Shown one piece after another: positions 7,601 through 12,532 of a stretch of 12,580 nt of DNA. The translations under genes were made by a program, and so were the position numbers. Under the pieces are notes generated by a model. That model worked only from the letters and a program-made list of their open reading frames with translations, did no database searches and had not been told where the DNA came from. The stretch's first letter is position 1. Each line of letters opens with the position of its first letter. The stretch comes from a virus, in the UHGV virus genome UHGV-1654074; one strand, 5' to 3'.

Positions 7601-7712
7601 GATAGGTCCGGCTGCCCTGAAGGTGGTTTATGACCTTGGGAAAAAAGCGGCAGCGGACTTTATGCAACAGCAGGCCCGTGATGGTGGTCGGTTAAGTGGA
7701 GCATATCGGTAA
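4647..7712 (+). CDS. H: Tail length tape measure protein H homologue (1021 aa).
   Basis: GGAGGTG precedes the ATG at 4647 (the track start at 4617 is upstream and less likely). Very long Q/E/R/K/A-rich helical protein with an internal hydrophobic segment (MMLGGVIGGIAAAVYGLG). The C-terminal region (...FAFAKGAGVMGEAGPEAILPLRRGADGKLGV...) is as I recall for lambda gpH. Stop overlaps the M start (TAATG). Confidence 0.9.
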   Translation: MDQIANLVIDLGIDAAEFKNEIPRIKNLLNGAASDAERSSARMQRFMERQTQAARQTTQAASSAATAASVHAQTVEKNAQAHERMAREVEKTRQRMEALSQKMREEQAQAMALAEAQDKAAAAFYRQIDSVKQASAGLQELQRIQQQIRQARNSGGIGQQDYLALISEVTAKTRVLTQAEEEATRQKVAFIRQLKEQATRLNLSSSELLRAKAAQLGVSSAAEVYIRKMEQAGKATHSLGLKSAAARQEIGVLIGELARGNLGALRGSGITLANRAGWIDTLMSPKGMMLGGVIGGIAAAVYGLGKAWYDGQKEGEEFNRQLSLTGHYAGVTAGQLWTLSRAISGNGITQHAAAGALAQVVGSGAFRGNDIGMVARAAAQMERSVGQSVSDTINQFKRLKDDPVNAAKALDNELHFLTATQLEQIRVLGEQGRSSDAARIAMSALAEETGRRTADIDNNLNALGSTLKYLSDLWSRFWDAAMNIGREDSLDEQIAALQEKVSRAKRLPWTASSSQVEYDQQRLNDLQEKKRQKDLQDAKEQAERNYQEQQKRRNAENAALNRMNETEAARHQREIARINAMQYADQAVRDAAIQRENERYEKALASGKKKTRETRNDEATRLLLQYSQQQAQVEGQIAAARQSAGIATERMTEAHKQLLALQQRISDLDGKKLTADEKSVLARKDELIQALTLLDVKQQELQKQTALNELKKKTIQLTSQLAEEERAQRQQHDLDIATVGMGDQQRQRYQVQLSLRQKYQQQLEQLRRDSEQKGTYNTDDYRKAEQALTESLNRQLNENRRYWQQLEVVQGNWKNGVLRAFQDFTVDADNTAETAEQVFSSAFSNMGNGLATFVTTGKLNFKSFTSSVLSDMAKILAQATMMKSIKGIGSVLGFDLSSLSLNANGGIYQSADLSRYSGTVVNRPTFFAFAKGAGVMGEAGPEAILPLRRGADGKLGVVADIGGSGMAMFAPQYNIEINNDGTNGQIGPAALKVVYDLGKKAAADFMQQQARDGGRLSGAYR

Positions 7713-8041
7713 TGGAGACGTTTCACTGGAAAGTGCGCCCGGATATGAATGTGGTATCAGAGCCGAAAGTGGTGACAGTGAAGCTGGGCGATGGTTATGA
7801 ACAGCGTCGTGCGGCGGGACTGAATAACCAGTTGTCGACTTACAGCGTGACGATACGTGTTCGTAAATGTGAACACCCATCTTTAAAAGCCTTTCTGGAA
7901 CGGCACGGTGGCGTCCGCGCATTTCAGTGGACGCCACCTTATGACTGGAAGCCGATCAGGGTGGTTTGTCGTAAATGGTCGGCAAGCGTGGGGGCGTTGT
8001 GGGTAACCATAACGGCAGATTTTGAACAGGTCGTGGCATAG
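7712..8041 (+). CDS. M: Minor tail protein M homologue (109 aa, the same length as lambda gpM).
   Basis: 109-aa ORF coupled to the H stop. M.TF.WKV.P ... GDGY.QR ... TYSV ... WTPPY.W ... AEFEQVV pattern as in lambda gpM. Confidence 0.9.
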   Translation: METFHWKVRPDMNVVSEPKVVTVKLGDGYEQRRAAGLNNQLSTYSVTIRVRKCEHPSLKAFLERHGGVRAFQWTPPYDWKPIRVVCRKWSASVGALWVTITADFEQVVA

Positions 8042-8050
8042 GAGTCTCTG

Positions 8051-8749
8051 ATGCAGGATATTCCACAGGAAACACATCATGAGACGACACGCCTCACTCA
8101 GTCAGCCCAGGTGGTGCTCTGGGAAATCGATCTGACAGTGGTCGGTGGAGAACGTTATTTTTTCTGTAATGAGCAGAACGAAAAAGGTGAGCCGGTCACC
8201 TGGCAGGGGCGACAGTATCAGGCGTATCCCATTCAGGGGACGGGATTTGAACTGAACGGCAAGGGCAGTGCTGCCCGTCCGACACTGACGGTTTCTAACC
8301 TGCACGGCATGGTCACCGGGATGGCGGAAGACCTGCAGAGTCTGGTCGGCGGAACGGTGGTCCGGCGTAAGGTTTACGCCCGTTTTCTGGATGCGGTGAA
8401 CTTCGTCAACGGAAACAGTGACGCCGATCCGGAGCAGGAGGTGATCAGCCGCTGGCGCATCGAGCAGTGCAGCGAACTGAGCGCGGTCAGTGCCTCCTTT
8501 GTACTGTCCACGCCGACGGAAACGGATGGCGCTGTTTTTCCGGGACGTATCATGCTGGCCAACACCTGCACCTGGACCTATCGCGGTGATGAGTGCGGTT
8601 ATCACGGTCCGGCGGTCGCGGATGAATATGATCAGCCGACGTCCGATATCACGAAGGATAAATGCAGCAAATGCCTGAGCGGCTGTAAGTTTCGCAATAA
8701 CGTCGGCAACTTTGGCGGCTTCCTTTCCATTAACAAACTTTCGCAGTAA
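8051..8749 (+). CDS. L: Minor tail protein L homologue (232 aa, the same length as lambda gpL) with a C-terminal cysteine cluster.
   Basis: AGGAG 6 nt upstream. Sequence (VVLWEIDLT..GGERYFFCNEQNEKGEPVTWQGRQYQ...) closely matches my recollection of lambda gpL. Five cysteines lie in CTWTYRGDECGYHGP...DKCSKCLSGCKF. Confidence 0.9.
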   Translation: MQDIPQETHHETTRLTQSAQVVLWEIDLTVVGGERYFFCNEQNEKGEPVTWQGRQYQAYPIQGTGFELNGKGSAARPTLTVSNLHGMVTGMAEDLQSLVGGTVVRRKVYARFLDAVNFVNGNSDADPEQEVISRWRIEQCSELSAVSASFVLSTPTETDGAVFPGRIMLANTCTWTYRGDECGYHGPAVADEYDQPTSDITKDKCSKCLSGCKFRNNVGNFGGFLSINKLSQ

Positions 8750-8753
8750 ACCC

Positions 8754-10066: not shown

Positions 10067-10085
10067 TGCAAAATGTTTTATGTGA

Positions 10086-10105
10086 AACCGCCTGCGGGCG
10101 GTTTT
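10086..10105 (+). terminator. Terminator-like hairpin in the I-J spacer: stem AACCGCC/GGCGGTT, loop TGCG, followed by a T-rich tract.
   Basis: aaccgcctgcgggcggttttgtcgttt read directly; it lies 20 nt after the I stop and 22 nt before the J ATG. Confidence 0.4.
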
Positions 10106-10126
10106 GTCGTTTATGGAGCGTGAGGA

Positions 10127-12532
10127 ATGGGTAAAGGCAGCAGTAAGGGGCATACCCCGCGCGAAGCGAAGGACAACCTGAAGTCCACGCAGTTGCTGAG
10201 TGTGATCGATGCCATCAGCGAAGGGCCGGTTGAAGGTCCGGTGGAGGGATTAAAAAGTGTGCTGCTGAACAGTACGCCGGTGCTGGACACTGAGGGGAAT
10301 ACCAACATCTCCGGCGTCACGGTGGTGTTCCGGGCCGGTGAGCAGGAGCAGTCACCGCCGGAGGGATTTGAATCCTCCGGCTCCGAGACGGTGCTGGGTA
10401 CGGAAGTGAAATATGACACGCCGATCACCCGGACCATCACGTCGGCAAACATCGACCGTCTGCGCTTTACCTTCGGTGTACAGGCACTGGTGGAAACCAC
10501 CTCAAAGGGAGACAGGAATCCGTCGGAAGTCCGCCTGCTGGTTCAGATACAGCGTAACGGTGGCTGGGTGACGGAAAAAGACATCACCATTAAGGGCAAA
10601 ACCACCTCGCAGTATCTGGCCTCGGTGGTGGTGGATAACCTGCCGCCGCGCCCGTTCAATATCCGGATGCGCAGGATGACGCCGGACAGCACCACAGACC
10701 AGCTGCAGAACAAAACGCTCTGGTCGTCATACACCGAAATTATCGATGTGAAACAGTGCTACCCGAACACGGCACTGGTCGGCGTGCAGGTGGACTCGGA
10801 GCAGTTCGGCAGCCAGCAGGTGAGCCGTAATTATCATCTGCGCGGGCGTATTCTGCAGGTGCCGTCGAATTATAACCCGCAGACGCGGCAATACAGCGGT
10901 ATCTGGGACGGAACGTTTAAACCGGCATACAGCAACAACATGGCCTGGTGTCTGTGGGATATGCTGACCCATCCACGCTACGGCATGGGGAAACGTCTTG
11001 GTGCGGCGGATGTGGACAAATGGGCGCTGTATGTCATCGGCCAGTACTGCGACCAGTCAGTACCGGACGGCTTTGGCGGCACGGAGCCGCGCATCACCTG
11101 TAATGCATACCTGACCACACAGCGCAAGGCGTGGGATGTGCTCAGTGATTTCTGCTCGGCGATGCGCTGTATGCCGGTATGGAACGGGCAGACGCTGACG
11201 TTCGTGCAGGACCGACCATCAGATAAGGTGTGGACCTATAACCGCAGTAATGTGGTGATGCCGGATGATGGCGCGCCGTTCCGCTACAGCTTCAGCGCCC
11301 TGAAGGACCGCCATAATGCCGTTGAGGTGAACTGGATTGACCCGAACAACGGCTGGGAGACGGCGACAGAGCTTGTTGAAGATACGCAGGCCATTGCCCG
11401 TTACGGTCGTAATGTCACGAAGATGGATGCCTTTGGCTGTACCAGCCGGGGGCAGGCACACCGCGCCGGGCTGTGGCTGATTAAAACAGAACTGCTGGAA
11501 ACGCAGACCGTGGACTTCAGCGTGGGCGCAGAAGGGCTTCGCCATGTGCCGGGCGATGTCATTGAAATCTGCGATGATGACTATGCCGGTATCAGCACCG
11601 GTGGTCGCGTGCTGGCGGTGAACAGCCAGACCCGGACGCTGACGCTCGACCGTGAAATCACGCTGCCATCCTCCGGTACCACGCTGATAAGCCTGGTTGA
11701 CGGAAGTGGTAATCCGGTCAGCGTGGAGGTTCAGTCCGTCACCGACGGACTTAAGGTGAAAGTGAACCGGGTTCCTGACGGCGTTGCAGAATACAGTGTG
11801 TGGGGGCTGAAGTTGCCGACGTTGCGTCAGCGCCTGTTCCGCTGTGTGAGTATCCGTGATAACGATGACGGCACGTATGCCATCACTGCCGTGCAGCATG
11901 TACCGGAAAAAGAAGCCATCGTGGATAACGGGGCGCACTTTGACGGCGACCAGAGCGGCACGGTGAATGGTGTCACGCCGCCAGCGGTGCAGCACCTGAC
12001 CGCCGAAGTCACCGCAGACAGCGGGGAATATCAGGTGCTGGCGCGCTGGGACACGCCGAAGGTGGTGAAGGGCGTGAGCTTCCTGCTCCGTCTGACCGTA
12101 ACAGCGGATGACGGCAGTGAGCGGCTGGTCAGCACGGCCCGGACGACGGAAACCACATACCGCTTCACGCAACTGGCGCTGGGGAACTACAGGCTGACAG
12201 TCCGGGCGGTAAATGCGTGGGGGCAGCAGGGCGATCCGGCATCGGTATCGTTCCGGATTGCCGCACCGGCAGCACCGTCGAGGATTGAGCTGACGCCGGG
12301 CTATTTTCAGATAACCGCCACGCCGCATCTTGCCGTTTATGACCCGACGGTACAGTTTGAGTTCTGGTTCTCGGAAAAGCGGATTACCGATATCAGGCAG
12401 GTTGAAACCACAGCCCGCTATCTTGGTACGGCGCTGTACTGGATAGCCGCCAGTATCAATATCAAACCGGGCCATGATTATTACTTTTATATCCGCAGTG
12501 TGAACACCGTTGGCAAATCGGCATTCGTGGAG
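10127..12532 (+). CDS. J: Central tail fibre / tip attachment protein J homologue, 5' partial: first 802 codons, with no stop codon in the window. The frame runs into the 3' adapter.
   Basis: Not in the ORF track. Manual translation from the ATG at 10127 gives [68 protein letters not shown]... and stays open through ...[17 protein letters not shown] at 12532. This matches lambda gpJ as I recall it. GGAG lies 8 nt upstream of the ATG. Confidence 0.9.

Follow-up and report, generated by a model that had tools for sequence, protein, structure and literature searches.

Lambdoid phages in which lambda-like tails are combined with fused protease/coat genes of the Gifsy-2 type have been described for mEp213/LLS (PMC12315714; for the fused Gifsy-2 capsid gene see Effantin et al., 2010, as cited therein), and tail genes are co-transferred as a module (PMC9836094). 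In temperate and defective phages, mosaics of >90% identity flanked by weaker homology have a median length of 404–494 bp and are made mainly by Rad52-like recombinases, and about 70% of mosaics carry no detectable trace of homologous recombination (PMC3945230). UHGV virus genome UHGV-1654074, the stretch of 12,580 nt that was analysed here as a whole (the window), carries a section of the late (virion) operon of a lambdoid E. coli phage or prophage of the mEp460/cdtI type, and all its genes form a single rightward operon. Its nucleotide (nt) identity to lambda is 50% over positions 44–8110 and 95.7% over 8111–12532, and this step falls inside the tail-tip gene L. We conclude with high confidence that the step at 8099–8111 goes back to an old recombination event, and that the joint has been passed down to the whole mEp460/cdtI family, which shares its tail-tip module with lambda. 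The joint is already found in annotated public records and belongs to a known form of lambdoid mosaicism in a sequenced phage family.

The position of the joint is well defined. In sliding windows of a global alignment with lambda, identity stays at 45–70% up to about position 8050 and lies at 90–99% from about 8150 onwards, and a maximum chi-square analysis placed the change point at 8111 (chi2 of 2657 against a permutation maximum of 22.6, n = 300). At the base level, differences from lambda occur in clusters of which the last stops at 8110, and an exact run of 82 nt begins shortly downstream; on the plus strand, identity to lambda thus climbs over a few bases at 8099–8111 from about 60% to a level of about 96%. 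A first-pass annotation, made from the letters alone, had described the window as a mosaic with lambda-like distal tail genes and head-proximal genes of another kind, and had suggested a recombination junction around M/L of a sort typical of lambdoid modular exchange. The mosaicism is borne out by the identity step and its type by the coincidence of that step with a ten-fold step in synonymous divergence (dS); the junction itself is real, but it sits off the M/L border, 60 nt inside L at codon 20/21. The sliding-window comparison proposed there for locating breakpoints worked with lambda, whereas HK97, N15 and phi80, named as further references, were unhelpful: their tail-tip proteins share 28–38% amino acid (aa) identity with those of the window, and no match at the DNA level to L–J was found in any of the three.

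Synonymous sites tell the same story. Relative to lambda, dS is 1.08–1.66 for Z, U, V and M (1.58 for M itself) and 1.99 for L codons 1–20, and it is 0.147 for L codons 21–232, 0.205 for K, 0.135 for I and 0.112 for J. A drop of about ten-fold inside one gene indicates recombination rather than constraint at the protein level, and the two sides of the joint thus have different histories. Among complete E. coli genomes the nearest relatives of the two sides differ as well, the best match being 100.0% identical for the left block and 97.8% for the right block. The 110 nt that follow the joint (8111–8220, plus strand) are the best-conserved stretch of L across lineages, as seen in a comparison with lambda, the Stx phages and Gifsy-2: identity to the window is 98% in lambda, 85% in the Stx phages (73–74% in the rest of L) and 75% in Gifsy-2 (66% in the rest). 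This stretch is likely to have been the homology anchor of the crossover.

The whole window is 97–98% identical to mEp460, mEp460_4F5, Ayreon, cdtI, Tritos and others, with 98–99% of its length covered. Such an even likeness to a single reference had been named by the first-pass annotation as the outcome that would speak against mosaicism, and mEp460-type phages do match from end to end, yet unevenly, at 98.7–100% to the left of the junction and 92.7–97.8% to the right. A prophage of E. coli SC423 has zero mismatches over 44–8347 and thus runs through the joint unchanged. Since the junction is found in isolated phages and finished genomes, it must be old and family-wide and was not made in this contig; for the same reason we rejected the idea that the entire lambda-like block is an assembly artefact. 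At ≥80% coverage the window finds matches in 1,806 of the 5,426 complete genomes of E. coli, all of which show this junction. In the same set, 1,804 genomes have the left block and 4,316 the right block. The two Stx phages Stx2_EH1846 and Stx2_12E129 both begin to match at 8099 and continue through L-K-I-J at 76–82%, with different modules upstream (HK97-like head and shaft genes in Stx2_EH1846, a cdtI-like head in Stx2_12E129), while other phages begin to match at the start of K (about 8779) or of J (about 10117–10125). The presence of the right block in more genomes and in several lineages indicates that the tail-tip module is a gene pool common to several lambdoid lineages. The window lies outside the species Lambdavirus lambda (about ≥95% identity genome-wide), as megablast hits to lambda cover 38–39% of it. 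A record named Campylobacter phage CJLB-4 (MW057783) gives a match to the window that equals those of the lambda records in both span and identity.

As to how the joint arose, homologous (“relaxed”) recombination between diverged lambdoid genomes is the most likely course, since the joint keeps the reading frame, falls in register between homologous genes and lies at the edge of the most conserved stretch of L. The enzyme would have been a phage recombinase of the Rad52 type or RecA, and selection for a working tail tip would have followed. The L–J block behaves as a gene pool common to several lambdoid lineages that is continually shuffled in sub-kb patches. The insertion of morons at the M/L boundary of Gifsy-2 was also counted in favour of a junction here. 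Several points weigh against this account. There is no exact run of ≥20 nt shared with lambda within 7616–8110, a left flank that is only about 60% identical. A Chi-driven recombination hotspot was considered and rejected, given that the window holds no Chi site (GCTGGTGG; 0.76 expected by chance) and shows no sign of the involvement of a RecBCD hotspot. The data are compatible with transfer from lambda to the mEp460 type or the reverse, and part of the likeness of K and I to lambda in this contig could stem from an assembly chimera, as discussed below.

The same weak left flank would suit illegitimate (non-homologous) recombination followed by selection of an in-frame functional product (the Hendrix model), a route that also agrees with the published share of about 70% of mosaics in which homologous recombination left no trace (PMC3945230). 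Against this route stand the position of the joint, which is in register inside homologous genes and falls where the best-conserved 110 nt of L begin, the occurrence of the same boundary in other lineages, and experiments that favour recombinase-dependent exchange (PMC3945230); we regard it as unlikely. That no recombination took place at all, L-K-I-J being merely under much stronger purifying selection than the genes upstream, can be virtually dismissed even though tail-tip proteins form one assembly that is conserved in many lambdoid lineages, because dS falls from 1.6–2.0 to 0.15 within L and because the same genes of HK97, N15 and phi80 are diverged to such a degree that the block is not intrinsically slow-evolving; it is specific to lambda rather than conserved in general.

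To the right of the joint the window has a finer structure of its own. All 200 differences from the SC423 prophage fall in 8348–12241, and relative to mEp460 dS is 0.01–0.04 from Z through L codon 20, 0.16–0.20 for L codons 21–232, K and J, and 0.71 for I; we attribute this confinement of the variation within the family to L–J to continued shuffling of the block. When the window was painted against ten references, a backbone of the SC423/ECOR29 type was recovered at 44–8347, 8534–8919, 9267–9492 and 9977–12532, interspersed with three plus-strand tracts that have no mismatch to the lambda-type prophage of E. coli A21: one in L (8318–8613), one in K (8898–9328) and one that takes in the 3' end of K and almost the whole of I (9434–10035). 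Within 1.7 kb the sequence thus changes six times between two haplotypes, each of which it matches exactly. In the A21 prophage the head is of the true lambda type and H has the size found in lambda, from which it follows that the lambda-like I of the window is an allele of the lambda lineage. Further downstream, in J, a cluster of six single-nucleotide polymorphisms at 11488–11548 sets the window apart from every mEp460-type member of the panel (SC423, ECOR29, KE55 and MS1050) and is not of the A21 type, which suggests a third donor haplotype.

Two explanations of these patches are about equally probable. The first, to which we give an even chance, is that they are real and recent and arose by gene conversion in the tail-tip block that an mEp460-type phage shares with a lambda-type prophage resident in the same host. 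The tracts, at about 300–600 bp, fit the published median for temperate and defective phages (PMC3945230), the identical swap of the I allele is seen in finished genomes and phages of the mEp460/cdtI family, and three K allele types circulate among mEp460-type prophages. What this explanation lacks is an independent sighting of the haplotype combination at 8318–10035, either in complete E. coli genomes or in protein collections, and the contig comes from short reads assembled without polishing. The combination was found in none of the complete E. coli genomes, among which the highest identity is 97.2% over 7900–10500 and 97.8% over 8111–12532, against 100.0% over 44–8110. Neither an exact-protein look-up in about 15 billion proteins nor a gene-position index returned the exact K protein, despite the very dense sampling of K from E. 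coli prophages.

These same absences would be expected under the second explanation, which we rate a little below an even chance: an assembler could have jumped between an SC423/ECOR29-type and an A21-like prophage present in one sample, either at shared stretches or through bubbles that were popped singly. The two co-sampled prophages would then have been alike at about 95–97% in L–J. The six exact-haplotype switches in so short a space, the raw state of the contig, with its adapters untrimmed, and the median of three copies of the block carried by E. coli genomes are all in keeping with such a chimera. On the other hand, a patchwork of the same sort is seen among finished genomes: patches of about 100–600 bp in K, I and J distinguish SC423, ECOR29 and KE55 from one another, and KE55, MS1050 and mEp460_4F5 are of the mEp460 type with a lambda-type I. 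Some of the shared stretches at the switch points are also short (22–30 nt), and switching there would need a small k-mer. Nor would a chimera explain the main junction at 8111, as it is present in complete genomes; that junction is unaffected by either explanation of the patches.

Taking joint and patches together, one can picture codons 17–20 of L as a recurrent crossover point anchored by 8111–8220, at which the first ~20 residues of L are kept with M, and the contig as the product of a very recent multi-patch gene conversion, by which an mEp460-type phage received K and I sequence from a lambda-type prophage. We put this forward only tentatively and as a minority possibility; if true, it would mean an ongoing traffic of tail-tip alleles between two lambdoid lineages with unrelated heads. 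The importance of the locus beyond annotation is otherwise small, but the contig can be labelled with confidence as a fragment of a lambdoid phage or prophage that belongs to the mEp460/cdtI type and has the tail tip of the lambda type. It does offer a clean worked example of lambdoid mosaicism, in which an intragenic in-frame joint and a ten-fold step in dS illustrate textbook modular exchange, and it shows L-K-I-J as a shared and actively shuffled gene pool in about 80% of complete E. coli genomes. It also carries a caution: in raw short-read contigs from hosts with several prophages, sub-kb patches of apparent recombination are indistinguishable from assembly chimeras without the reads.

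All eleven genes of a lambda-type tail operon, Z-U-V-G-T-H-M-L-K-I-J, are present on one strand and in lambda order, with Pfam scores above gathering. The lambda-like block takes up 4.4 kb or more of the window, and in relatives its length is about 5.5 kb; in mEp460 and SC423 it reaches to about codon 990 of J and stops before the receptor-binding end, a boundary that lies beyond the contig. It opens within L (8051–8749, plus strand; Pfam Phage_tail_L), of which codons 1–20 (8051–8110) belong to the diverged block and are 63.3% identical to lambda at the nt level, whereas codons 21–232 (8111–8749) are lambda-like at 95.0%. K (8754–9497, plus strand) encodes a protein with JAB/MPN and NlpC/P60 peptidase domains according to Pfam; its centre (about 9044–9343) is merely 85% identical to lambda, mEp460 and SC423 although K is lambda-like overall. 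I (9395–10066, plus strand; Pfam Lambda_tail_I) is identical to that of the A21 prophage and was annotated in the 223-aa form used in the lambda RefSeq record; an alternative start at 9494 would give 190 aa. J (10127–12532, plus strand) is cut by the end of the contig after its N-terminal 802 aa, is 96.8% identical to lambda at the nt level and matches Pfam FNIII-A_GpJ, Phage-tail_3, Ig_J and Ig_J_second.

Near-identity to lambda had been noted in the first-pass annotation for L, I and the N-terminal 800 aa of J, and it holds on alignment: aa identity is 93% for L, 94% for K, 98% for the 223-aa form of I and 98% for the 802 aa of J. The same is true of the K/I overlap of 103 nt (9395–9497; 98.1% nt identity) and of the 60-bp spacer between I and J (10067–10126, plus strand; 59/60 positions identical, 98.3%), both of which are arranged as in lambda NC_001416, where K occupies 14276–14875 and I 14773–15444 and J starts at 15505. 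Within the spacer a GC-rich hairpin (AACCGCC-TGCG-GGCGGTT) followed by a T-rich stretch can be read by eye at 10086–10104, where the terminator scanner reported none. Elsewhere the interval between I and J holds an annotated terminator (N15), terminators and morons (HK97) or sodC (Stx2_EH1846). An open reading frame of 449 aa antisense to J (11219–12568, minus strand) was judged spurious, as it has no Pfam match and extends into the adapter at the end of the contig.

The tail shaft genes to the left of the joint are recognisable and diverged, as the first-pass annotation had stated for M, V, U and G. All lie on the plus strand: Z (2160–2738; Minor_tail_Z, 51% aa identity to lambda), U (2735–3136; Phage_tail_U, 53%), V (3147–3890; Phage_TTP_12, 55%), G (3948–4337; Phage_TAC_2, 35%), T (4346–4675; Phage_tail_T, 38%), the tape measure gene H (4647–7712; TMP_2/Tape_meas_lam_C, 25% over 76% of its length) and M (7712–8041; Phage_min_tail, 56% aa and 59.7% nt identity), which is the last gene of the diverged block. 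H was rightly said to differ in length from its lambda counterpart (1021 aa here, 853 aa in lambda). Phi80 and N15 are somewhat nearer than lambda for Z and V (56–71% against 51–55%), yet neither is a donor.

The end of G reads ...CCG GAA AAG TCC TGA (4320–4346) and contains the heptamer GGAAAAG (4325–4331, plus strand), a candidate −1 frameshift site from which T is open in the −1 frame. The slippery heptamer of lambda is GGGAAAG, one base different, and T may by analogy be made as a G-T fusion, as in lambda. Two features of H deserve mention. Short islands near its 3' end, at 7416–7517 and 7587–7615, are kept among otherwise unrelated tape measure genes (80% identity to HK97 gp16, 83% to Stx2_EH1846, and an exact run of 29 nt with lambda) and may correspond to a conserved C-terminal motif of the tape measure protein. 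In addition, a stretch of 238 bp (6381–6618) matches the terminal part of the Aeromonas jumbo phage AP1 record (MT713136, 251326–251563) at 99.2% identity, which looks like contamination of that record with an E. coli prophage, or its misassembly.

The head genes are of a different type from those of lambda. The phage DNA opens within a fused prohead protease/scaffold/major capsid gene of the Gifsy-2/cdtI type, of which the last 474 codons are present (44–1470, plus strand; Phage_capsid_4, E 9e-55) and the 5' end, with the protease part, lies beyond the contig. This fragment is 99% identical to mEp460 gp05, and the homologous gene of closely related E. coli prophages is labelled [quoted passage not shown] in RefSeq. 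It is followed by a gene for a 107-aa head protein of the cement/decoration type (1557–1880, plus strand; DUF2190, Phage_cement_2, E 2e-20) and one for a 91-aa protein of the Gifsy-2 family (1873–2148, plus strand; PF13856, E 2e-17), whose homolog is named “Hc1 head closure protein” in mEp460_4F5; the three families in this order constitute a head of the Gifsy-2 type. None of the three genes gave a tblastn match to lambda, in agreement with the earlier statement that they are unlike lambda E, FI and FII. An intrinsic-terminator-like hairpin with a T run was found by terminator scan 3' of the capsid gene (1494–1513, plus strand), and a second strong one lies within the late operon 3' of V (3911–3934); both have annotated counterparts in mEp460.

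According to BLAST the phage DNA comprises 44–12532: all database matches begin at 44 and end at 12532–12537. Positions 1–43 are not of phage origin and are an untrimmed Illumina Nextera adapter. They consist of one base and the reverse complement of the 8-nt i7 index ATGCGCAG, followed by the read-2 transposase adapter GTCTCGTGGGCTCGGAGATGTGTATAAGAGACAG, and the right end (12533–12580) likewise consists of untrimmed Nextera sequence, namely CTGTCTCTTATACACATCTCCGAGCCCACGAGAC, the index ATGCGCAG and ATCTCG. Neither end was assigned a strand, and the adapter copies at the two ends are inverted relative to each other. With untrimmed adapters at both ends, the window must represent one whole raw short-read contig. 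The end coordinate of 12532 that had been given for the mosaic region is indeed the last phage base; it is merely the point where the adapter begins and marks no biological boundary. Open reading frames that touch the ends partly read adapter, for example those on the minus strand at 46–399 and 11219–12568.

Compared with described systems, the window is closest to mEp460 (NC_019716), mEp460_4F5, Ayreon, cdtI, Tritos and the SC423 and ECOR29 prophages, all of which have the same gene order and the same junction with lambda-like sequence. It departs from mEp460, SC423 and ECOR29 in its alleles of K and I, and for I these carry a shorter and divergent allele (80% aa identity in mEp460; about 50–75% nt identity over 9525–9825), while the window has the lambda type; SC423 is again free of mismatches over 9977–11487. 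Lambda (NC_001416 / PV340536) resembles the window from L codon 21 to the end of the contig, including the K/I overlap and the I-J spacer, and differs throughout upstream, where the proteins from Z to H share 25–55% aa identity and the head genes belong to another type in which no similarity was detected. Lambda also differs from relatives of the window in roughly the last 140 codons of J. Salmonella phage Gifsy-2 offers the opposite picture: it has the same head type (the fused protease/capsid, DUF2190 and PF13856 proteins) and collinear tail genes, but its identity to the window is roughly even at 66–74% of nucleotides over most of the window and on both sides of the junction, with no step; it is far more diverged overall, and between M and L it carries lom-like and sodC morons (7749–8911 of the Gifsy-2 record) where the window has a plain gap of 9 nt. 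The mosaics analysed by De Paepe et al. (2014; PMC3945230) likewise combine a block of >90% identity with adjoining homology of ~60%, and patches of 95–100% identity and less than 1 kb are found inside such blocks, as in L-K-I of the window; the main block of the window is, at 4.4 kb or more, far longer than the median mosaic of that study (404–494 bp).

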